Virus record (IMG/VR): IMGVR_UViG_2579778989_000006
Direction: 5' to 3' (one strand)
DNA: 10,019 nt
From: a virus
Lineage: Duplodnaviria > Heunggongvirae > Uroviricota > Caudoviricetes
The notes under the pieces are model-generated. The model did not search any database and was not told where the DNA came from. It saw nothing but the letters and a program-made list of their open reading frames with translations. Below, piece after piece: positions 1 to 10,019 of this stretch. Numbering within the stretch: position 1 is the stretch's first letter; each line of letters opens with the position of its first letter. The translations under genes and the position numbers were made by a program.

Positions 1-191
1 CCCTCCATCACCGCCCCCGGTATCCCGCTCATGCTGGCGAACCCAGACACGCAGAGTCTCCGGCGTACAGCCAATCTTTGGAGCAATGGAACAAATTGTC
101 GCCCATTGTGAGTCATATTCGCCCTGACTTTCCAGAACCATACGGACTGCCCGTTGACGGACTTCAGGGGAAAAACGAGTATTTTTAGTCA
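1..191 (-). CDS. IS3-family transposase OrfA, N-terminal part (partial, runs off window)
   Basis: Minus-strand translation from ATG at 191: [64 protein letters not shown]..., no stop before the window edge. This is a helix-turn-helix OrfA N-terminus typical of IS3-family elements. Absent from the ORF track because it is truncated by the window edge. Confidence 0.75.
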
Positions 192-246
192 TCCTGTTTA
201 CCTCTTTCTCAGGAAGTTTAGTCTCCAGGATTCCCGGGGCGGTTCA
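1..246 (-). mobile_element. Terminal part of an IS3-family insertion sequence (IS629/IS1203-like); element continues beyond the window start
   Basis: Reverse complement of 233-246 reads TGAACCGCCCCGGG, a 5'-TG terminal inverted repeat of the IS3-family type; about 55 bp inside it a minus-strand ATG (revcomp of 189-191) with a GAGG Shine-Dalgarno opens an OrfA-like reading frame. Element boundary placed at 246. Identity as IS629/IS1203 is from memory of the OrfA N-terminus and end sequence, not a search. Confidence 0.7.
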
Positions 247-753
247 GAAGCGGTATTACGTCGTTCGCTGGGGTTGCGTGCGGAAAAAATCCGCTCAATG
301 TACCGTGAAAGCGACATCGTACCGGGAGAGCAGACCGCCACCAGCATACTGAAGCAGCGCACAAAAAATCTTGCGCCGCTGCCTCACGCCCACCAGCAAA
401 ACCCGCCACAGGAAGAGACGGTGGTCAGCATTGCCGTTGATCCTGAGTCTCCGGAATCTTTCATGAAACGACCTAAACGTCGCCGCTGGGTTAACGAGAA
501 ATACACACGCTGGGTGAAGACACAGCCGTGTGCGTGTTGTGGTAAGCCAGCCGACGATCCCCATCACCTGATTGGTCATGGTCAGGGCGGAATGGGGACA
601 AAATCTCACGATATTTTCACGCTACCGCTGTGTCGGGAGCATCACAACGAGCTTCATGCGGATCCTCTGGCGTTCGAAGAAAAGCATGGTTCTCAGGTTG
701 ATTTAATTTTTCGTTTTCTTGATCACGCCTTTGCAACTGGCGTGCTTGGGTAA
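247..753 (+). pseudogene. 3' portion of a DUF968-type prophage gene with HNH-like Cys/His motif, apparently interrupted or N-terminally displaced by the IS insertion
   Basis: The track ORF 154-753 starts at a TTG inside the IS terminal sequence; the non-IS reading frame begins at 247 (EAVLRRSLGL...). The C-terminal region carries CACCGKPADDPHHL...CREHHNELH, an HNH/zinc-finger-like signature as in DUF968 proteins found upstream of rusA in lambdoid prophages. An intact shorter protein starting at ATG 298 or 463 cannot be excluded. Confidence 0.5.
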
Positions 754-765
754 AAGAGGTGACTG

Positions 766-1125
766 ATGCTCATAGATTTGGTTTTACCTTACCCGCCGAC
801 GGTGAACACTTACTGGCGACGCCGTGGCAGCACATATTTTATCTCGGAGGAGGGAAAGCGTTATCGCCGGGCTGTGGCGCTTATTGTTCGCCAGCAGCGG
901 CTGAAATTAAGCCTGTCCGGAAGGCTGGCGATAAAGGTGATTGCAGAGCCACCGGATAAGCGTCGTCGCGACCTGGACAATATCCTGAAAGCACCGCTGG
1001 ATGCGCTGACGCATGCGGGAGTGTTAATGGACGATGAGCAGTTTGATGAAATCAATATTGTACGTGGCCAGCCAGTATCAGGTGGACGGCTGGAGATAAA
1101 AATTACAGAGGTGGGGTGTGCATGA
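766..1125 (+). CDS. rusA: RusA-family crossover junction endodeoxyribonuclease (Holliday junction resolvase)
   Basis: 119-aa ORF; AAGAGGTGA Shine-Dalgarno 5-6 nt upstream of ATG 766. Sequence pattern LPYPPTVNTYW...RRRDLDNILKAPLDALTHAGVLMDDEQF...RGQPVSGGRLEIKITE matches the RusA fold signature (acidic DxD catalytic region, C-terminal GGRLEI). Position in the nin region upstream of Q is as expected. Confidence 0.85.
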   Translation: MLIDLVLPYPPTVNTYWRRRGSTYFISEEGKRYRRAVALIVRQQRLKLSLSGRLAIKVIAEPPDKRRRDLDNILKAPLDALTHAGVLMDDEQFDEINIVRGQPVSGGRLEIKITEVGCA

Positions 1126-1805
1126 ATAACCAGTATTTACAGTTTGTTCGTGAGCAACTCATGATTGCCACAGCGGATCTCAGTGGGTCGACAAAAGGCC
1201 AGCTGGAAGCCTGGCAGGAAAATGCCCTGTACGATACAGGGCGTTACAGACGCAAAAAAATTCGTTACCGCGATGAGGTAACCGGAAAAATGATCACGCG
1301 GGATAACCCACCGATCCCGGGTAAACAATCACTGGCGAAAGGCTCATCAATTGCGCTGGTCAGTCCGGTTGAGTTTGCAACATCATCGTGGCGGCGTGCC
1401 GTTCTGGAACTGGAAGAGCATCAGAAGGCGTGGTTACTGTGGTGCTACAGTGGAAATGTTTGCTGGGAAGATCAGGTCACCATAACACAGTGGGTATGGA
1501 GTGAGTTTAAGGCTCAATCCGGTACCAGAAAAATAGCGGGGAAAACGCAGGAACGCCTGAAGAGGTTGATCTGGCTGGCTGTACAGGATGTGAAGAGCGA
1601 GCTGGTCGGGCGTGAGACTTATGAACATCAGGCGTTGGCGGTGTTGATGGGAGTTGCTAAATCTACATGGACAACAACACACAGGCCTCACTGGTTGGCT
1701 ATGCGGGGTAGTGCAGAGGGGCTGGACAGGGATGCGCTTATTTCAGTAATGCGGGTACGATCACGGCAACAGTCGCTTAATTTAGAACCATATCTTGCAA
1801 AATAG
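1122..1805 (+). CDS. Late-gene antitermination protein candidate (Q position); family not verified
   Basis: 227-aa ORF from ATG 1122 (track gives GTG 1116); GAGGTGG Shine-Dalgarno upstream; ATG overlaps the rusA stop (ATGA), implying translational coupling. Sits in the canonical Q slot: immediately after rusA and immediately before a promoter-like element and a strong intrinsic terminator. I do not see the lambda-Q zinc-finger motif, so the assignment is positional. Confidence 0.55.
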   Translation: MNNQYLQFVREQLMIATADLSGSTKGQLEAWQENALYDTGRYRRKKIRYRDEVTGKMITRDNPPIPGKQSLAKGSSIALVSPVEFATSSWRRAVLELEEHQKAWLLWCYSGNVCWEDQVTITQWVWSEFKAQSGTRKIAGKTQERLKRLIWLAVQDVKSELVGRETYEHQALAVLMGVAKSTWTTTHRPHWLAMRGSAEGLDRDALISVMRVRSRQQSLNLEPYLAK

Positions 1806-1823
1806 AACTGAAGAGCATATATT
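1795..1823 (+). promoter_or_regulatory. Candidate late promoter (pR'-like): -35 TTGCAA, 17-bp spacer, -10 TATATT
   Basis: TTGCAA at 1795-1800, TATATT at 1818-1823, 17-nt spacer; located at the 3' end of the Q-position gene and ~50 bp upstream of a strong terminator, as for lambdoid pR'/tR'. Confidence 0.35.
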
Positions 1824-1872
1824 TCGTGTAAATCTGATATTTCGCCGATTTTATACGCGATGGCAAAGTAAG

Positions 1873-1900
1873 AAAAAACCGCCGCCAGGCGGTTTTTTTA
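1873..1900 (+). terminator. Rho-independent terminator (tR'-like), potentially bidirectional
   Basis: AACCGCC (1877-1883), loop GCCA, GGCGGTT (1888-1894): a perfect 7-bp GC-rich stem followed by a run of seven T; preceded by an A-tract. Confidence 0.7.
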
Positions 1901-2019
1901 TGCCCAAAATCGCGTCAGTACAGTAAACGCGCTGGTGGTTGCGAATACGGGTCTTTCAGCTTGCTGGCTTTTTCGACAAGAGTTATTGGTATGTCATGTT
2001 AACCAGAAGGGAAAAAGAC

Positions 2020-2223
2020 ATGCTAAAACAGCAAGATATGACAGAAACCGCCGCCGCAGTCCTTCATTTCTTACCTGCTGACAAGTGGGTAACGCCACGT
2101 ATGATGACGAGAACTACCGGAGTAAGCGAAGCCCGGTGCCAGTTAATACTGACTCAGTTAGTTCTGGCGGGTCTGGCGAAGGATAACGGCGGGTACGGGA
2201 ATAAATTCAGACGCTGCCAGTAA
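2020..2223 (+). CDS. Hypothetical small protein (67 aa) downstream of tR'
   Basis: Track ORF 1939-2223 would run through the terminator, so the start is more plausibly ATG 2020 (AGAAGGGA Shine-Dalgarno 8-10 nt upstream) or ATG 1996. Product MLKQQDMTETAAAVLHFLPADKWVTPRMMTRTTGVSEARCQLILTQLVLAGLAKDNGGYGNKFRRCQ; possible winged-helix-like small protein, not recognised. Confidence 0.4.
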   Translation: MLKQQDMTETAAAVLHFLPADKWVTPRMMTRTTGVSEARCQLILTQLVLAGLAKDNGGYGNKFRRCQ

Positions 2224-2342
2224 TGGCGGTTTCCTGCTGTGAAAATGGGCGGCTGGTGGGTGTTGGTAGCACCTGCCAGCCATTCGCTCATGCTTACTGG
2301 TCACAAGCGAACCACGGCCCACTGCTTTAGCGCAAAAGCAGA

Positions 2343-2780
2343 GTGAGCCTACCAGAGTTACGCTTACTGATCCATGAAAATACTGTAAAAATAAACAGTG
2401 TTGATTTAATCAACGCTGATTGCCTGCATTTTATTCAGTCCCTGCCTGATGATTCCATTGACCTGATTGTTACCGATCCGCCGTATTTCAAAGTGAAACC
2501 CGAGGGCTGGGACAATCAGTGGAAGGGCGACGATGATTACCTGAAGTGGCTGGACCAGTGTCTGGCTCAGTTCTGGCGGGAGCTGAAACCTGCTGGAAGT
2601 CTTTACCTGTTCTGTGGACATCGCCTGGCATCTGATATTGAAATCGTGATGCGTAAACGTTTTAATGTGCTGAACCATATCATATGGGCGAAGCCGTTCA
2701 GACCTTGGAGCGCATGCTGTTGTTGCTCACTGGTATTACGAACGGTTTGCTCACGGGGATGTACACATATTAATTGTTGA
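2343..2780 (+). pseudogene. N6-adenine DNA methyltransferase, 5' remnant (truncated)
   Basis: N-terminal part has the catalytic motif IV DPPY (IDLIVTDPPYF) and conserved flanks (SVDLINADCLHFIQSLPDDS, LKPAGSLYLFCG), but the ORF ends after 145 codons in a Cys-rich tail (SACCCCSLVLRTVCSRGCTHINC) with no FxGxG AdoMet-binding motif. Base composition switches to strongly AT-rich at ~2765. Functional methylases of this class are roughly twice this length. Confidence 0.7.
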
Positions 2781-2788
2781 TGTTAATA

Positions 2789-3130
2789 TTACGTCATGTT
2801 ATTAATACAAAATTGCAACGCATCATTCAAAGTATTATAATTATCATTTGTTGCATTTATTATGCCAACATTCCTTGTTGGTCTTCCTTCCGTTGAATAT
2901 TCTATCCAGAATGAGCCGGTGTATTTTGACATTCTATATGTTGCGAATTCTTTTGCATTAATTGGTGGTTTGGTGCCGTTGAGATCCAATATATAACCAC
3001 TTTCTTGAATTGTCTTAGAAAGGCAATTGATTATTTCATTTGTCGATATTTCACTGTCGATTTGAGGATGATTCACAATTAGCCCCATGCAGAGGATGCT
3101 TGAAATTATTATAAAAATATTTTTTATCAT
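2789..3130 (-). CDS. Hypothetical 113-aa protein with N-terminal signal peptide or membrane anchor, on an AT-rich island
   Basis: Minus-strand ORF in a markedly AT-rich segment. N-terminus MIKNIFIIISSILCMGLIVNHP is a hydrophobic signal or anchor sequence; mature part is Asn/Thr/Ile-rich with two Cys (possible disulfide). Opposite orientation to the surrounding phage late genes; no strong Shine-Dalgarno. Not recognised as any known family. Confidence 0.55.
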   Translation of the reverse strand: MIKNIFIIISSILCMGLIVNHPQIDSEISTNEIINCLSKTIQESGYILDLNGTKPPINAKEFATYRMSKYTGSFWIEYSTEGRPTRNVGIINATNDNYNTLNDALQFCINNMT

Positions 3131-3402
3131 GATGTCTGTTTTTGTGAACTTTTAGATAGAATGTCTGCTGTGGAGATATGTATACCTCTTGTGCTCATTT
3201 ATTTCAATAGATAGTTGAGCACTCATTGTGCTAATGGAAGAAGTTTTTTAATATGGAGTATCATCAAAATCACACAATAGTGATTAATATTGCTATTAGA
3301 TAAAGAAGTATCGCTAACTTTGATTTTGTTGAATTTGTTTTTAATAAAAGTTAGTGTGGTTTATATAGCAGGCATATGCATGCTGTTTTTAAAGAAACTT
3401 AT

Positions 3403-3477
3403 TGCCCCTTTAGCCCTAATGGTCAGAGCGAGAGGTTAATAACCGCCAGGTCGCCGGTTCAAACATGGCAGGGGCAC
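3403..3477 (+). tRNA. tRNA-like element, probably a degenerate tRNA pseudogene (tRNA-Ile2/LAU-like body)
   Basis: Perfect 7-bp acceptor stem (TGCCCCT 3403-3409 with AGGGGCA 3470-3476) and a TTCAAAC T-loop, but the D stem and anticodon stem have multiple mismatches, the anticodon loop is TTAATAA, and no CCA is encoded (CGAA follows). Overall resembles the E. coli tRNA-Ile(LAU) gene as I recall it. Confidence 0.35.
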
Positions 3478-3480
3478 GAA

Positions 3481-3557
3481 GCGCTGTTAGCTCAGTTGGA
3501 CAGAGCAATTGCCTTCTAAGCAATCGGTCACTGGTTCGAATCCAGTATGGCGCACCA
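3481..3557 (+). tRNA. tRNA-Arg (anticodon UCU)
   Basis: Manual cloverleaf: acceptor GCGCTGT/ATGGCGC (two G-U pairs), D arm GCTC-AGTTGGACA-GAGC, anticodon arm ATTGC-CTTCTAA-GCAAT (anticodon TCT), variable loop CGGTC, T arm ACTGG-TTCGAAT-CCAGT, discriminator A and encoded CCA. 77 nt. Confidence 0.85.
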
Positions 3558-3558
3558 T

Positions 3559-3633
<75 letters not shown>

Positions 3634-4110
3634 TAGAGGATTATGGGACAGTATAGTGAGCATTTTTCTGCGTTACTTTTCATCGGTAAAAATAAGCATA
3701 CAACAACTATTTATGCTGGCATTAGCTATGATAGTTATTGGTTTTCTCGGAATGTGTTTATTTGTTTACTATATTCTTATCGATAACTGATATTTTTGAT
3801 ATGAATACGGAGTGGTACAAACAAAAATATGAATTCGCTATGGAATCAGGATGTGTAATAAAAATAATAGTCACTAAGTTATAGTTTTTTTTAAAATGTT
3901 AAAAACATCACATTTCATTATGTTGGGCACTGGAGAATACCCAGTCGTTTTGTTAAAAATAATTACGCATGGTGAATCCCCCTAAGCGGAGGGGCAATCA
4001 GCAACTGGTGTTTTGTCACCGACCCTTATCCTTTCTGTGCGGGTTCAGGTGCTGATACTGAACTCACCGGGAGGCACCCGGCACCATGCAAAATTGTCTA
4101 CACTACCACT

Positions 4111-4140
4111 GTAAAAAGCCCCTCTCCGGAGGGGCTTTTC
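4111..4140. terminator. Bidirectional rho-independent terminator hairpin
   Basis: GCCCCTC (4118-4124), loop TCCG, GAGGGGC (4129-4135); A-tract upstream (4113-4117) and T-tract downstream (4136-4139). Confidence 0.6.
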
Positions 4141-4239
4141 TATGGGCAAAAAAAAGCCCGCAGTGAGTGGCGGGCGGGTCGCATGAATATACATCAGGTA
4201 TTTTTATTATCGTGTTCTGATTTTTACCATCTGTGATAA

Positions 4240-4265
4240 GGCTGCGCAACTGCGCGGCCTTTTTC
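4240..4265 (+). terminator. Rho-independent terminator ~95 bp upstream of the esterase gene
   Basis: GGCTGCGC (4240-4247), loop AACT, GCGCGGCC (4252-4259): 8-bp stem with one G-U pair, followed by TTTTT (4260-4264). Confidence 0.6.
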
Positions 4266-4358
4266 GTTTTGCGGGCTGCGGTTCTCCTCTTTTGATTCTC
4301 CGTGTAGCCGGACCGTGGCCCGCAACTGTTGAGGAAAATCCCGGAAAGGGGAGGAATA

Positions 4359-6293
4359 ATGGCATTTAAACACTATGACGTGGTCAGGGCGGCGTCGCCG
4401 TCAGACCTTGCGGAGCGACTGACACAAAAACTGAAGGAAGGCTGGCAGCCGTTTGGCAGTCCTGTGGCTATCACGCCTTATACACTGATGCAGGCCATTG
4501 CCGCAGAGGGTGATGTGACCACGCCTGTGGTTGTGCCCGACACAGGGGCTGGTGGCTCTCCGGGAGTGGCTACCACTGAACCGGAGTATTACTACGTTAT
4601 TCCCCTGGCCGGGCAGTCGAACGGTATGGCCTATGGTGAGGGGCTTCCTCTGCCGGAGACCTATGATCGCCCTGACTCCCGTATTAAGCAGCTGGCCCGT
4701 CGCAGCACTGTGACGCCGGGTGGTGATACCTGTGCATACAATGACGTTATTCCGGCAGACCACTGTCTGCATGATGTTCAGGACATGAGCGCACTTAACC
4801 ATCCTCATGCAGACCTGAGTAAGGGCCAGTACGGGACTGTCGGTCAGGGGCTGCATATTGCCAAAAAACTGCTGCCTTATATCCCGCAGAATGCCGGGAT
4901 TCTTCTGGTGCCCTGTTGCCGTGGCGGGTCTGGTTTAACCGTGGGTAATGACGGCACGTTCAGCGAAACGTCTGGCGCATCGGCAAATTCAGCCCGCTGG
5001 GGAGTGGGTAAACCGCTGTATCAGGATTTTCTCTTCCGTACAAAAGCGGCGCTGTCGAAGAACCCGAAAAACAGGCTTCTGGCCGTGGTATGGATGCAGG
5101 GGGAAAATGATCTTGCGGACGGCAGTCAGCAGCACAGCGGCCTGTTTACCACTATGGTGCAGCAGTTCAGGGCTGATATGGCTGCATATTCTGCACAGTG
5201 TGTTGGCGGAAGTGCTGGCTCGGTGCCGTGGATTTGTGGTGACACCACGTATTACTGGAAGAATCTTAACGCCGATAAATATGAGGCGGTATATGGCGGT
5301 TACAAGGGCAGGGAAGCACAGAATATTTTCTTTGTTCCTTTTATGACGGACAGCAGTGGTGCAAACACACCCACCAACAATCCGTCAGAAGACCCGGATA
5401 TTCCGGCATCAGGATATTACGGTGCAGCTTCCCGGACGTCGGCAAACTGGACGTCAGCAGACCGTGCGAGCCATTTCAGCTCATGGGCACGCAGGGGGAT
5501 TATCTCTGACCGTCTGGCCTCAGCGATTCTTCTCCATGCAGGACGAACGGCTGAACTGGTGGGGGGACAGGTTGTGACGCCGCCGGATGAGAAGCCGTCA
5601 CCGGACACACCACCAACACCGTCAACGGACGGGAAATCAGTGACAACGCTGCTTTCTTACCGTGCAGCAGAGTCAGATGGTTTACTGACTCCGCAGGGAT
5701 GGGGAGCTGAAGGAGGGAGTGCAGCGGTAGTTGATGATGCAGGTGCTGCGGGAGGTAAGGCGCTGAGGCTGACCAAACAGGCAGGAAGGTCTTCGTGGTT
5801 TATGCAGCATGATGCCGGTAATGGCGCAGACCTTCTGGAGAAAGGCGGGCTTATCAGCTGTCGTTTTAAAGTTGATGGTGTGCTGTCTGCTAACCGTTAT
5901 GCACTGGCGCTGTACTGGCCGGTTTCTTCATTGCCTCAGGGTGTCACACTGGAAGGTAATGCCGGTAACAATCTGCTGGCGTCGTTTTACGTACAGAGCG
6001 ATGCCACAGACCTCAACGTGATGTACCACAAGGGTAACGCTGACCAGAACACGAAGCTGGGGTCATTCGGCGCATTTGACAACGAATGGCATACGCTGGG
6101 CTTCCGTTTTGCCGGTAATAACAGCATTCAGGTGACGCCGGTGATTGATGGTCAGGATGGTGCACCGTTCATGCTGTCGCAGTCTCCGGTAGGTTCTTTT
6201 GCGGCAGACAAATTACGTGTAACGGATATCACAAAAGCGGCGACGTATACGGTGCTGATTGAAAGTATAACAGTGGAAGTGAATAACCCGTAA
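4359..6293 (+). CDS. nanS-p: Prophage-encoded sialate O-acetylesterase (NanS-p type): DUF1737-like N-terminus, SGNH/SASA esterase domain, C-terminal beta-rich domain
   Basis: Track ORF 4329-6293; preferred start ATG 4359 (GGGGAGGA Shine-Dalgarno 5-8 nt upstream). N-terminus MAFKHYDVVRAASPSDLAERL...GWQPFGSPV is the DUF1737-type module; YYVIPLAGQSNGMAYGEG holds the GQSN catalytic-serine block of SGNH esterases; a Pro/Thr-rich linker (PPDEKPSPDTPPTPSTDGK) precedes a C-terminal ~200-aa domain. Location downstream of the phage tRNA array matches nanS-p genes of EHEC Stx prophages. Confidence 0.85.
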   Translation: MAFKHYDVVRAASPSDLAERLTQKLKEGWQPFGSPVAITPYTLMQAIAAEGDVTTPVVVPDTGAGGSPGVATTEPEYYYVIPLAGQSNGMAYGEGLPLPETYDRPDSRIKQLARRSTVTPGGDTCAYNDVIPADHCLHDVQDMSALNHPHADLSKGQYGTVGQGLHIAKKLLPYIPQNAGILLVPCCRGGSGLTVGNDGTFSETSGASANSARWGVGKPLYQDFLFRTKAALSKNPKNRLLAVVWMQGENDLADGSQQHSGLFTTMVQQFRADMAAYSAQCVGGSAGSVPWICGDTTYYWKNLNADKYEAVYGGYKGREAQNIFFVPFMTDSSGANTPTNNPSEDPDIPASGYYGAASRTSANWTSADRASHFSSWARRGIISDRLASAILLHAGRTAELVGGQVVTPPDEKPSPDTPPTPSTDGKSVTTLLSYRAAESDGLLTPQGWGAEGGSAAVVDDAGAAGGKALRLTKQAGRSSWFMQHDAGNGADLLEKGGLISCRFKVDGVLSANRYALALYWPVSSLPQGVTLEGNAGNNLLASFYVQSDATDLNVMYHKGNADQNTKLGSFGAFDNEWHTLGFRFAGNNSIQVTPVIDGQDGAPFMLSQSPVGSFAADKLRVTDITKAATYTVLIESITVEVNNP

Positions 6294-6442
6294 GCAGGAA
6301 AAAAAAGACCGCCGTGGCAGGGAAAACAAGGAGCCAGAACCGGCGGCAGAAGTCGCTACATCCTTAGCAAAAATATGCTGAGCAAAAAATGCAGGAGTTT
6401 TTTACTGGCAGGCATTGACCATGTCAATAATGGAGATGAATA

Positions 6443-6625
6443 ATGACATTTTTACAGCTGATTATGTTGTATTTCTGTACAGCAGTTTGTGTGCTGTATC
6501 TTCTTTCTGGTGGGTACAGAGTCGTGAGAGATTTCTGGCGCAGACAGATTGACAAAAGGGCCGCTGAGAAAATCAGTGCCAGTCAGTCAGCCGGAACAAA
6601 ACCCGAAGAGCCTCTCATTCCGTAG
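6443..6625 (+). CDS. Hypothetical small membrane protein (60 aa)
   Basis: GGAG Shine-Dalgarno ~8 nt upstream of ATG 6443; N-terminal hydrophobic helix (LQLIMLYFCTAVCVLYLLSGG) followed by a basic then acidic tail. Confidence 0.5.
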   Translation: MTFLQLIMLYFCTAVCVLYLLSGGYRVVRDFWRRQIDKRAAEKISASQSAGTKPEEPLIP

Positions 6626-6661
6626 CAACTTTCTTAACAACACCTTTCAACGAGAAAATAC

Positions 6662-6932
6662 CATGTCAGAAATAAAATCGCTGGTCACTGCTGAAGCAGT
6701 GAAGGAAGTCCTGCGCTCTGAAGAAGTCAGAAGCGCACTGAAACAGCAACTTCGGCAGAACCTTGAGGCGCGTCTTGATGCAGAAGTGGATGCCATTCTG
6801 GATGAACTGCTGGGCGCACCGACTGTTCCGGAGCCGGAAGGCATTGCGGATGACAGTGCTGTTTCAGATGGCGTCGGGTCTCAGCCTGATGGTAGCAGTG
6901 AGCCTCAGCCTGACGGCGAAATGATGATGTAA
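6662..6932 (+). CDS. Hypothetical acidic protein (~90 aa)
   Basis: Track ORF 6549-6932 overlaps the preceding ORF; the first ATG clear of the overlap is 6662 (MSEIKSLVTAEAVKEVLRSEE...). Strongly acidic C-terminus (SEPQPDGEMMM). Weak Shine-Dalgarno; start uncertain. Confidence 0.4.
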
Positions 6933-7007
6933 CCATGCGCAGGGGCTGTCGGTGTGAGCTGATGCCCCTCTTGTTGTTGTGAGCTTCCGGATTGCGGGAG
7001 ACGGGGT

Positions 7008-7223
7008 ATGTACCAGATGGAAAAAATCACAACAGGTGTGTCATACACCACGTCAGCGGTGGGAACGGGCTACTGGTTCCTGCAGTTGCTGGACAGGGTT
7101 TCCCCGTCTCAGTGGGCGGCAATAGGCGTGCTGGGGAGTCTGCTGTTTGGGCTGCTGACATATCTGACTAACCTGTATTTCAAAATCAGAGAGGACCGGC
7201 GTAAGGCCGCCCGGGGAGAGTGA
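7008..7223 (+). CDS. S: Class II holin, S21-type pinholin, with dual-start motif
   Basis: 71-aa ORF; GGAGACGGGG Shine-Dalgarno. Two in-frame starts (Met1 and Met4: [10 protein letters not shown]) as in holin/antiholin pairs. Sequence ...[51 protein letters not shown] closely matches phage 21 S21 as I recall it (two TM segments, charged C-terminus). Confidence 0.85.
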
Positions 7224-7226
7224 ATA

Positions 7227-7784
7227 ATGAACCATGAAGAAATGAATCAGCGCTTCAGTCGCCTGGAAAATGAAATTGCTGAACTGAATAAAAAACTGTC
7301 GACGCTGATGCCTTCTGAAGATGAAAAAAAACGCCGCGATGAGCAGTTTGCTGCGTTTGACGATTATTGTCGGAAAGTGATGAGCAGAAATCTCGCAGAG
7401 TGTTTCAGTATTCATAATGATAATTTCAGTGACCTGGAATGGGAGTGTAACCGGCCATCCTTTGTTGTATCCGGTGATGCCGGGAAAATAACCATCACAG
7501 AAAATGGGAAACTAACACCTCCATCGCACCAGCACAGTGAGGAGCTCATTGAATTTGCCATTGATTACCTGAAGAACAATAAAAAGCAGGGGCTGATGAA
7601 GCGCGTTGGCCGTTGCATGGGATATCTGCAGATAGCTGCTGAGATTGAAGCGCTGGCCAGTGGTGCGGACAAGGATGCAGTTGTGCGGGAGGCTCTTCTT
7701 CGTGATTTTGATAATCCGCCCTTTAAAAAAGTGCCGGCTTACTGGTTTCATCCAGGACTGACTTATCTTAAAGGACGTATATAA
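7227..7784 (+). CDS. Hypothetical 185-aa soluble protein located between holin and endolysin
   Basis: ATG 7227 lies 3 nt after the holin stop (TGA 7221-7223) with GGGGAGAG Shine-Dalgarno inside the holin 3' end, implying translational coupling. N-terminal predicted coiled coil (NQRFSRLENEIAELNKKLSTL), no hydrophobic segment, four Cys. No family recognised. Confidence 0.6.
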   Translation: MNHEEMNQRFSRLENEIAELNKKLSTLMPSEDEKKRRDEQFAAFDDYCRKVMSRNLAECFSIHNDNFSDLEWECNRPSFVVSGDAGKITITENGKLTPPSHQHSEELIEFAIDYLKNNKKQGLMKRVGRCMGYLQIAAEIEALASGADKDAVVREALLRDFDNPPFKKVPAYWFHPGLTYLKGRI

Positions 7785-7826
7785 GCTGGCTCGTTATCTG
7801 TTGCCGATAAATCCTGATAAATATCC

Positions 7827-8360
7827 ATGAACACCAAAATCAAATACGGCCTGTCGGCTGCCGTTCTGGCGCTGATTGCCGCTGGTGCGCCTGCGCCTGA
7901 CATTCTCGACCAGTTTCTGGATGAAAAGGAAGGCAATCACACCACGGCATACCGTGATGGTGCAGGTATCTGGACCATCTGCCGTGGTGCCATCATGGTG
8001 GATGGCAAACCTGTCGTTCCGGGCATGAAGTTGTCGAAGGAAAAATGCGACCAGGTTAACGCCATTGAGCGTGATAAAGCGCTGGCGTGGGTGGAGAAAA
8101 ACATCAGAGTGCCACTGACCGAACCCCAGAAAGCGGGGATCGCGTCATTCTGTCCGTACAACATTGGTCCCGGTAAGTGTTTCCCGTCGACGTTTTATAA
8201 ACGAATTAATGCAGGCGATCGCAGGGGGGCGTGTGAGGCGATTCGCTGGTGGATTAAGGACGGTGGCAGAGACTGCCGTATTCGCTCAAACAACTGTTAC
8301 GGTCAGGTATCCCGTCGCGACCAGGAGAGTGCGCTGGCGTGCTGGGGAATTGACAGATAA
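7827..8360 (+). CDS. R: SAR endolysin (T4-lysozyme-like muramidase, GH24) with signal-anchor-release N-terminus
   Basis: 177-aa ORF. N-terminal Gly/Ala-rich weakly hydrophobic segment (LSAAVLALIAAGAPAP) typical of SAR domains, followed by the lysozyme catalytic triad spacing E-x8-D-x5-T (EGNHTTAYRDGAGIWT). Pairs with the pinholin upstream. Confidence 0.85.
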   Translation: MNTKIKYGLSAAVLALIAAGAPAPDILDQFLDEKEGNHTTAYRDGAGIWTICRGAIMVDGKPVVPGMKLSKEKCDQVNAIERDKALAWVEKNIRVPLTEPQKAGIASFCPYNIGPGKCFPSTFYKRINAGDRRGACEAIRWWIKDGGRDCRIRSNNCYGQVSRRDQESALACWGIDR

Positions 8361-8450
8361 GCAGAATATTTTGCTGAAAAATGCGGTTTGCTCACACGGA
8401 CGGATAACACGAAATCCTGCGAACTGACAAAAACTAAGTGAATAAAAGTA

Positions 8451-8484
8451 AAAACCCCGTTTGTTGGCTGCAAGCGGGGTTTTG
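8451..8484 (+). terminator. Rho-independent terminator-like hairpin between endolysin and spanin genes
   Basis: CCCCGTTTG (8455-8463), 7-nt loop, CAAGCGGGG (8471-8479): 9-bp stem with one G-U pair, followed by TTTTGTGTTT; A-rich tract upstream. Confidence 0.55.
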
Positions 8485-8558
8485 TGTTTCCTGACTCTGG
8501 AAAAGTCAAAGGAGAAAGTGTGTTTGATTTTAGCAAACTGATTCGGGAGATTCGAGTG

Positions 8559-8657
8559 ATGGCTGAAAAATTATCCACCTGGAAGTTCATTCTTATCTGG
8601 CTGGTGTTTGTGATTATGGCCTCCGGTTATTTCATCGGTCAGATACGCTGGTGGTGA
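8559..8657 (+). CDS. Candidate 32-aa membrane micro-protein, translationally coupled to Rz
   Basis: ATG 8559 with GGGAG Shine-Dalgarno 9 nt upstream; product MAEKLSTWKFILIWLVFVIMASGYFIGQIRWW (single hydrophobic helix); stop TGA 8655-8657 is 1 nt before the Rz ATG (TGAaATG). Below the size cutoff of the supplied ORF track. Confidence 0.35.
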   Translation: MAEKLSTWKFILIWLVFVIMASGYFIGQIRWW

Positions 8658-8658
8658 A

Positions 8659-9126
8659 ATGAACCGCGTACTGTGCGTGGTCATCATTGCCCTGCTGGTG
8701 GCCTGTGGTGCGCTTAGTCTGGGGCTGAATCATTACCGTGATAACGCCATAACCTACAAAGAGCAGCGCGATAAAAAAGTCAGTGAGCTGGAGCTGGCAA
8801 ATGCAACCATTACTGATATGCAGCAGCGCCAGCGTGATGTTGCTGCACTTGATGCCAGATACTCGAGGGAATTAGCCGATGCGAGAGCTGAAAATGAAAC
8901 TCTTCGCGCTGACGTTGCCGCTGGTCACCGCAGCCTGCGGATCAACGCCACCTGTCCAGGTCCCGTGCGTGAAGCCACCGGCACCGCCCGCGTGGATAAT
9001 GCAACCGGCCCCCAACTGGCAGACACCGTTACACGGGATTATTTCACCCTCAGAGAGCGGCTGATGACGATGCAGAAGCAACTGGAAGGGGCACAGGACT
9101 ATATCCGCACTCAGTGCCTGAAATAA
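8659..9126 (+). CDS. Rz: Rz i-spanin (inner-membrane spanin subunit)
   Basis: 155-aa ORF with N-terminal TM anchor (VLCVVIIALLVACGALSLGL), coiled-coil middle, and an embedded +1-frame lipoprotein gene, the defining Rz/Rz1 architecture. Confidence 0.85.
   Translation: MNRVLCVVIIALLVACGALSLGLNHYRDNAITYKEQRDKKVSELELANATITDMQQRQRDVAALDARYSRELADARAENETLRADVAAGHRSLRINATCPGPVREATGTARVDNATGPQLADTVTRDYFTLRERLMTMQKQLEGAQDYIRTQCLK
8879..9064 (+). CDS. Rz1: Rz1 o-spanin (outer-membrane lipoprotein), embedded in Rz in the +1 frame
   Basis: ORF wholly inside Rz in another frame; signal peptide with lipobox-like LVTAAC followed by a Pro-rich mature region (CVKPPAPPAWIMQPAPNWQTPLHGIISPSESG) nearly matching lambda Rz1 as I recall it. 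Start may be ATG 8879 (GAGGGA Shine-Dalgarno) or ATG 8894. Confidence 0.8.
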   Translation: MRELKMKLFALTLPLVTAACGSTPPVQVPCVKPPAPPAWIMQPAPNWQTPLHGIISPSESG

Positions 9127-9154
9127 GTTTTGCTGATGCGCGGTATTGTCGCCG

Positions 9155-9219
9155 TATCCCCGCATTAACAGAGACCGCAGCCCGACAGGGAGACTCCTCT
9201 GCGCGAGTGTGCGGGGATA
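9155..9219. repeat. Perfect 10-bp inverted repeat (TATCCCCGCA / TGCGGGGATA) with 45-bp spacer downstream of Rz
   Basis: TATCCCCGCA at 9155-9164 and its exact reverse complement at 9210-9219, in a GC-rich noncoding stretch between the lysis cassette and the AT-rich distal region. Confidence 0.5.
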
Positions 9220-9476
9220 ATCAAAAACGATACACACCGGGGTTTACCGCGTTAACGGAGCGCGGCGTTGTCCCCTCATAGTCGCCTGTCCGGTGCGATG
9301 GTGGAAGAAGCCGGATGTTTATCACTATTAATTGATGACACAGAAATGGATTCATTGAATTTCAGCACGTTTTTGTATTCGTGTTATTGAACATCTGTTT
9401 ATTTTACTTTTAACATATTGATAATAAAAAGAGCTGTAAATCTTTAGATGAGTCGATTTTGTCCGGGGAAGTTCAA

Positions 9477-9620
9477 ATGGATTTTATGCTGACGGTTTCT
9501 GGTGTGGTTATCCTGTCCATTGCTTATACTGCAGATAAATATGGCTGCCATTTGTTATCACGTATTGGCGCTTATTGTTCGTTGATGCTGATTTTCTCGT
9601 CGCTTTTTTTTGAGTAAGTT
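9477..9620 (+). CDS. Candidate 47-aa membrane micro-protein
   Basis: ATG 9477 with GGGGAAG Shine-Dalgarno ~7 nt upstream; product MDFMLTVSGVVILSIAYTADKYGCHLLSRIGAYCSLMLIFSSLFFE has two hydrophobic stretches. Below track size cutoff; AT-rich context. Confidence 0.3.
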
Positions 9621-9749
9621 ATATTAATTATAACAAATAATTTTCTGTGTTATTTTTTCAGGCTATCCCGTCAGAGGGGAAGCCTGTACTGCCAGGGAGC
9701 GAATGGAAAACTGATGTGTCCGGTAACTGCGTGTTCTGTGAACACCATG

Positions 9750-9935
9750 TTACTTAATTATGTAATTCATACCCGAACTCTCTGTTGACAGCCTTCTTCT
9801 GCAGGCTTCAATAACCCACGCTGAAAAGTTTCCTGAACCTTTCAGATCAAGAGCGATGTTAATTTGTTCAATCATCTGGTTTGGAAATCGGATGTTGCGG
9901 GTTGTTGTTCTGCGCGTTCTGTTTTTTGATGACAT
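9750..9935 (-). CDS. Small YlcI/DUF3950-like protein, probable ribbon-helix-helix-type DNA-binding protein
   Basis: 61-aa minus-strand ORF with GGGGAAA Shine-Dalgarno ~8 nt upstream of the start. Product MSSKNRTRRTTTRNIRFPNQMIEQINIALDLKGSGNFSAWVIEACRRRL... has a basic N-terminus then a beta-strand/helix pattern like Arc/CopG folds. Resembles the ylcI-type small proteins found distal to lysis genes in E. coli cryptic prophages (from memory). Confidence 0.5.
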   Translation of the reverse strand: MSSKNRTRRTTTRNIRFPNQMIEQINIALDLKGSGNFSAWVIEACRRRLSTESSGMNYIIK

Positions 9936-10019
9936 AATGTTTCCCCATATTCAGTGTTGCTGATTTGTATTATCAGAAGTTGCTTTTACGTTAATTTGAC
10001 GCAGATCAATTAATACGAT

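Follow-up and report, generated by a model that had tools for sequence, protein, structure and literature searches.

The window, a 10,019-nucleotide stretch of DNA, almost certainly preserves one side of an IS629 transposition into a ydfU-like DUF968 gene, which cut that gene in two within a lambdoid prophage of Escherichia coli 2-011-08_S3_C3. The window is the whole of draft contig JMGV01000091.1 (assembly GCA_000687065.1, locus tag prefix AC41_), and the other side of the insertion was found in that assembly on another contig, JMGV01000090.1. Such an insertion of IS629 into a dispensable gene of a prophage is ordinary and of an already known kind. The features of the window that bear on it are as follows.

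1–246, minus strand: IS629 left end (IS nt 246 to 1 on the plus strand), 100% identical to the copy in L005 and to many others; the contig stops inside the IS
1–192, minus strand: 5' part of orfA, first 64 codons with the helix-turn-helix, cut by the contig end (called gene; Pfam HTH_Tnp_1)
222–246, minus strand: left terminal inverted repeat IRL, TGAACCGCCCCGGGAATCCTGGAGA on the IS strand, terminal dinucleotide 5'-TG/CA-3'
154–753, plus strand: chimeric ORF of 199 aa, deposited as hypothetical protein AC41_4877 (KDA82095.1) (gene call, protein record)
247–753, plus strand: 3' fragment of the DUF968 (ydfU-like) gene, codons 181–348 and stop, pseudogene remnant (Pfam DUF968)
247–250, no strand: GAAG, right-hand copy of the 4-bp target-site duplication (three-way alignment)
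514–660, plus strand: HNH-like Cys/His motif region, CACCGK...DDPHHL...CREHHNELH (translation; sub-threshold HNHc_6 match)
766–1125, plus strand: rusA, same early-right operon (Pfam RusA, E=3.2e-18)
1116–1805, plus strand: late antiterminator Q, downstream of the IS (Pfam Phage_antiter_Q, E=2e-87)

The IS629 end and its junction with the phage gene

When reverse-complemented, window positions 1–246 match nt 1–246 of the 1310-bp IS3-family element IS629 at 246 of 246 bases. The perfect match is part of a complete 1310-bp element in E. coli 4/2-1 (L005 1601–2910; matching part 1601–1846), labelled by PGAP as an IS3-family transposase with programmed frameshift; in this copy, the –1 frameshift site of orfA/orfB is annotated, and the flanks are a 3-bp CTG duplication. 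The frameshift site, at about IS nt 340–450, belongs to the central part of the element that neither the window nor JMGV01000090.1 covers. Further copies with 100% identity occur in Stx-phage records (e.g. LC567824.1), where the depositors' label is 'IS3 family IS629 / IS629 transposase OrfA'. Given complete identity to an element present in 3622 of 5426 complete E. coli genomes, a chance match is excluded. IS629 is a multi-copy element, with a median of 3 and a maximum of 50 places per genome. The minus-strand ORF at 1–192 is the OrfA N-terminus (HTH_Tnp_1, E=3.6e-8), and the IS end on JMGV01000090.1 carries rve_2/rve_3, the DDE part encoded by orfB, so that the domains by which an IS3/IS629 element is recognized were found on the two contigs. 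In the IS3 family, the OrfAB transposase results from a –1 frameshift, and transposition proceeds by a copy-out/paste-in route via a circular intermediate.

Similarity to the DUF968 gene begins at exactly 247 in all comparisons, which places the IS/phage break at 246/247. ORF 154–753 starts at a TTG within the IS and joins 31 IS codons (154–246) to DUF968 codons 181–348; positions 154–192 are antisense to orfA codons 1–13, and 193–246 are antisense to the IS leader and IRL. The base at 247 is equivalent to nt 541 of the intact gene, the first base of codon 181, and is in frame with the ORF. A preliminary description of this DNA had proposed an IS3-family end at the start of the window, phage sequence from 247 onwards and an artefactual fusion beginning at the TTG; all of this was borne out, the coordinates included. 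The 247–753 fragment differs from L001 at 1 of 507 nt, and from the IS-free prophage of E. coli JKHS016 (L006) also at 1 nt, position 666. It is regarded as a pseudogene remnant because it is without a start codon of its own.

The second junction and the target-site duplication

The other IS end is located on JMGV01000090.1 (L017), where the DUF968 5' half is followed by GAAG and the IS629 right end. The junction reads ...CTACCGGAAG|TGAACCGCCCCGGGTTTCC... (in longer form, ...GCGCTACCGGAAG|TGAACCGCCCCGGGTTTCCTGGAGA...), after which IS nt 1310–985 run to the contig end with 325 of 326 bases identical. The right-end repeat, TGAACCGCCCCGGGTTTCCTGGAGA (L017 10545–10569), agrees with IRL at 23 of 25 positions, and both begin TGAACC; the element thus has the imperfect terminal inverted repeats with 5'-TG...CA-3' ends of IS3/IS629. 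In a three-way alignment of the left junction, the empty site and the right junction, the empty site has a single GAAG and each flank of the IS has a copy of its own, which makes GAAG a 4-bp target-site duplication. The matching repeat, the duplication and the 5' half of the gene (codons 1–181), all of which had been named as things to seek beyond the IS, were accordingly recovered from a single contig. Target duplications in the IS3 family are usually 3–5 bp long; the one described here is 4 bp, compared with 3 bp in the two reference copies examined (CTG in L005 and TTC in L002).

The deposited proteins are consistent with this duplication. Modelling of 4 bp predicted a 234-aa read-through product for the left fragment, and the homologue search returned a protein of exactly 234 aa without a Pfam domain, KDA82112.1 (AC41_4857, P0024), encoded on JMGV01000090.1. 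It consists of DUF968 residues 1–181 followed by 53 IS-encoded residues, VNRPGFPGECFICELRL..., which come from the right end of IS629 read antisense. A 3-bp GAA duplication, which would have ended the left fragment at ...CCG GAA TGA after 181 aa, was rejected, the duplication being 4 bp. Exact look-ups of the predicted 181-aa N-terminal fragment, in three alleles and with two start codons, gave no match, since with 4 bp duplicated the ORF reads on into the IS. Pattern scans of genome_contigs and metagenome_contigs for the left junction, as predicted for duplications of 3 bp and of 4 bp, likewise gave no match.

On this evidence, IS629 (1310 bp) transposed into the DUF968 gene in the nin-equivalent region, where it separates codon 180 from codon 182 and its transposase genes run antisense to the interrupted gene; the 4-bp target GAAG was duplicated in the process. 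The comparisons show that the gene of 348 codons is cut in two. The left piece is the source of AC41_4857, in which codons 1–181 run on into the 53 IS residues, and the right piece, codons 181–348, was extended back by the gene caller to the TTG in the IS, giving the 199-aa AC41_4877. Both chimeric ORFs, of 199 and 234 aa, are in all probability gene-caller artefacts of one disrupted gene. Both contigs end inside IS629, and the central 738 bp (IS nt 247–984) lie on neither contig. The window presumably starts inside the IS because draft assemblers stop at multi-copy repeats. From the matched duplication, we infer that the two gene halves are at present adjacent across the element, its central 738 bp included.

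Relative to IS629 as known from O157:H7, other STEC and Shigella (IS1203 being an isoform), the 246-bp sequence is the same at 100% and the right end, nt 985–1310, at 325/326. The TG...CA ends, the 25-bp imperfect inverted repeats, the OrfA helix-turn-helix, the short duplication and the prophage site are also alike; the differences are the 4-bp rather than 3-bp duplication and the rare site, and otherwise there is nothing of substance. The prophage setting is typical for IS629, as its copies are mostly prophage-borne (62% in four O157 genomes; PMC3271280).

The insertion site itself is rare, being found in two draft assemblies and in 0 of 5426 complete genomes. An exact-pattern scan for the right junction in genome_contigs and metagenome_contigs found none, and BLAST with the junction against complete E. 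coli genomes and phage records returned no record carrying it. An exact look-up of the product of ORF 154–753 returned two contigs, the one that makes up the window and one from the second draft assembly. This is GCA_000713235.1, in which the same right junction was assembled independently (JORO01000023.1; L004 1–1081 versus window 1–1072). This contig is 100% identical to the window through 983 and then diverges inside rusA into a module with a different RusA (124 aa) and an Antiterm-type Q (273 aa). The divergence points either to a chimeric contig or to recombination beyond an insertion that both share; one insertion followed by lambdoid mosaic recombination is the likely explanation.

This independent assembly also bears on whether the IS/DUF968 junction could be a chimera made in assembly where the contig ends. 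In favour of a chimera, the window, an entire draft contig, ends in a multi-copy repeat, and the junction is absent from all complete E. coli genomes, phage records, GTDB representatives and metagenome contigs searched. Yet the break coincides exactly with the CA that terminates the IS, the reciprocal junction with its 4-bp target duplication is present in the same assembly, and the right junction recurs in GCA_000713235.1, which leaves a chimera with a negligible probability. A real insertion whose halves have since been separated by an inversion or deletion, through recombination between IS629 copies, is improbable, though less so. It would be favoured by the number of IS629 copies that a genome can hold, by the linkage of the halves not being directly seen where both contigs stop inside the IS, and by the unequal likeness to JKHS016 of the left flank (96% over only 923 nt) and the right flank (99.97%). 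Against it, matching GAAG on both sides is the signature of a simple, unrearranged insertion, and a left/right difference in similarity is ordinary lambdoid mosaicism that makes a rearrangement unnecessary. A simple insertion of one IS629 copy therefore remains the preferred reading.

The intact gene and its interrupted relatives

The closest complete-genome relative, E. coli JKHS016 (NZ_CP147059.1), has the same prophage segment without the IS: L006 9501–19273 aligns to window 247–10019 with 3 mismatches (window positions 666, 3763 and 9924) and no gaps over 9773 bases. Its DUF968 gene is uninterrupted and 1047 bp long (L006 8961–10007). Full-length homologues of 1047–1050 bp (348–349 aa), K-12-type ydfU included, were found at ≥80% coverage in 3529 of the 5426 complete E. 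coli genomes. In its uninterrupted form the gene is a homologue of ydfU of the Qin prophage of E. coli K-12 (PF06147), K-12-type ydfU matching at about 86% nt identity over the full 1047 bp, and rusA and Q lie directly downstream; in the window, by contrast, the gene is disrupted and only codons 181–348 are present. Aligning 247–753 to intact homologues, as the preliminary description had suggested, showed the fragment to be codons 181–348 of 348, and the first of its two alternatives, that the IS splits a longer DUF968 gene, was borne out by the intact counterpart in JKHS016 and by the 5' half on JMGV01000090.1.

The Pfam DUF968 domain covers residues 160–345 of the intact protein, and the IS, which follows codon 180 of 348, therefore interrupts the domain itself and takes away the N-terminal half, rich in Cys and His. 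The full-length architecture (~348 aa, with the Cys/His-rich N-terminal half and the complete domain) is accordingly lacking from the window, codons 1–180 lying outside it. The window fragment still matches Pfam DUF968 (PF06147) at profile positions 23–171 of 171 (E=1.7e-66, 223.9 bits). A match to HNHc_6 (PF16784) stayed below threshold (E=4.8e-5, 23.5–24.0 bits versus a cut-off of 26.6 bits), and a CxxC...HH...HHNxxH pattern is visible in the translation.

The preliminary description had also allowed for a naturally short DUF968 gene, with its start at ATG 298 and the IS immediately before it. A 151-aa product from the equivalent of this ATG appears as a gene call in 118 protein-collection blocks, and it keeps Pfam DUF968 positions 39–171. 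In 10 of 10 such loci examined (L007–L016), however, the 5' part of the gene sits directly upstream, and in nine of them a gene-splitting indel or rearrangement is present, L009 being without an indel. Five of the ten have a 1-nt indel (four deletions in the A6 run at window 283–288 and one insertion near gene nt 548), two have a deletion of 20–25 nt and two a partial duplication. The ATG-298 calls in other genomes are split genes and not naturally short ones. As the gene is a single intact ORF of 1047 bp in the empty-site prophage of JKHS016, and as its 5' half in the interrupted copy sits beyond the IS on JMGV01000090.1, we give this alternative practically no weight, and the claim of a short gene is set aside in favour of an insertion within a full-length one.

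The breaks in the split loci lie near the IS site described here (A6 run, window 283–288; gene nt 548–592), so that IS insertion in this prophage and 1-nt frameshifts, 20–25 nt deletions and duplications in other genomes fall in one short stretch. It is nonetheless very doubtful that gene nt 540–600, the part that links the N-terminal half of DUF968 proteins to their HNH-bearing C-terminal half and includes the A6 run, is a recurrent break point whose 151-aa C-terminal piece works or is selected separately. The 151-aa ORF used as query selects for breaks near itself, which biases the recurrence, and we make no claim of a hot spot. Some of the 151-aa calls may reflect query bias or homopolymer error; they also appear in short-read assemblies.

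IS3-family elements in or beside the DUF968 gene were detected in only two other genomes (H11 and H12), too few to treat the gene as an IS629 hot spot, and this candidate was rejected. In E. coli 2000-3039 (NZ_CP101302.1, L002 1788–3097), a 1310-bp IS629-like element interrupts a DUF968 gene upstream of rusA, also with its transposase antisense, and PGAP labels the two gene halves as pseudogene fragments. This insertion is independent, since its position in the gene, behind about nt 151, is another one and it is flanked by a 3-bp TTC duplication; the element is a different IS629 subtype, and its joined match to window 150–400 has 93.9% identity. The BLAST match of this type (H11) was accordingly rejected as an instance of the same junction. 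The other genome, strain KL53 (H12), may hold a third IS insertion at the DUF968 gene.

Expression, annotation and prophage context

Loss of DUF968 function would be the expected outcome of the insertion, as far as the sequence can indicate. A scan of 1–753 for sigma-70-like promoters found none on either strand, and an outward promoter at the IS end driving the fusion was rejected on this result. The junction promoter of the IS3 family has its –35 in IRR and its –10 in IRL and points inward, not out of IRL. Continued expression of the 3' fragment with a working HNH-type domain, either within the 199-aa fusion or starting from ATG 298, is very unlikely. The fragment does retain profile positions 23–171 and the whole Cys/His motif, and genes split so as to leave the same 151-aa ORF are found repeatedly in other genomes. 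These points are countered by the lack of any promoter-like site in 1–753, by a TTG start without a visible Shine-Dalgarno and only a weak GGAAAA ahead of ATG 298, by the loss of the native start, which overlapped the stop of the upstream ORF, and by the choice of query, which biases the 151-aa recurrence.

With 1.3 kb inserted in antisense orientation, read-through to rusA and Q, 0.5–0.9 kb downstream, may be lowered. In this way rusA is potentially subject to polarity from the IS, and Q expression could be affected by the insertion, which might cripple the prophage; the inactivation of prophages by IS elements, mentioned in the preliminary description, is plausible as background.

The value of these results lies mainly in curation, and they add nothing new on IS3 transposition or on DUF968. 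KDA82095.1 (AC41_4877) and KDA82112.1 (AC41_4857) are IS-gene chimeras that should be replaced by a single pseudogene interrupted by IS629, and a single IS629 copy allows JMGV01000090.1 to be joined to JMGV01000091.1. As a rare, strain-specific marker, the insertion could serve for typing, like the IS629 sites in O157.

From 247 on, the window is colinear with JKHS016 (DUF968, rusA, Q, truncated methylase, tRNA-Arg/Gly, SASA esterase, holin, lysozyme and Rz), and identity to the right of the IS is 99.97%. To the left of it, the resemblance is confined to 923 nt at 96% (L017 9622–10544 and L006 8583–9504), the rest of the early region being different. This places a mosaic boundary at the DUF968 gene or just to its left.

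The N6/N4 DNA methylase gene at window 2343–2780 is truncated (145 aa, Pfam positions 1–85 of 221) and is followed by an AT-rich segment at 2780–4000 with 30–40% GC. Within this segment, a minus-strand ORF at 2789–3130 has a signal-peptide-like N-terminus and no Pfam match; JKHS016 is arranged in the same way. Stx phages carry stx at this position, and stx is absent from it in the window. Two phage-borne tRNA genes, tRNA-Arg(TCT) at 3481–3557 and tRNA-Gly(TCC) at 3559–3633, were found by both ARAGORN and Rfam. The sRNA STnc100 (RF02076) has a full-length Rfam match on the plus strand at window 3937–4147 (140.8 bits, E=8e-32), a short way ahead of the gene for the SASA esterase (4329/4359–6293). 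In the lysis cassette, a 185-aa ORF on the plus strand (7227–7784) lies between the class II holin (7008–7223) and the lysozyme (7827–8360); it is without a Pfam match and is conserved in JKHS016 as a hypothetical protein.
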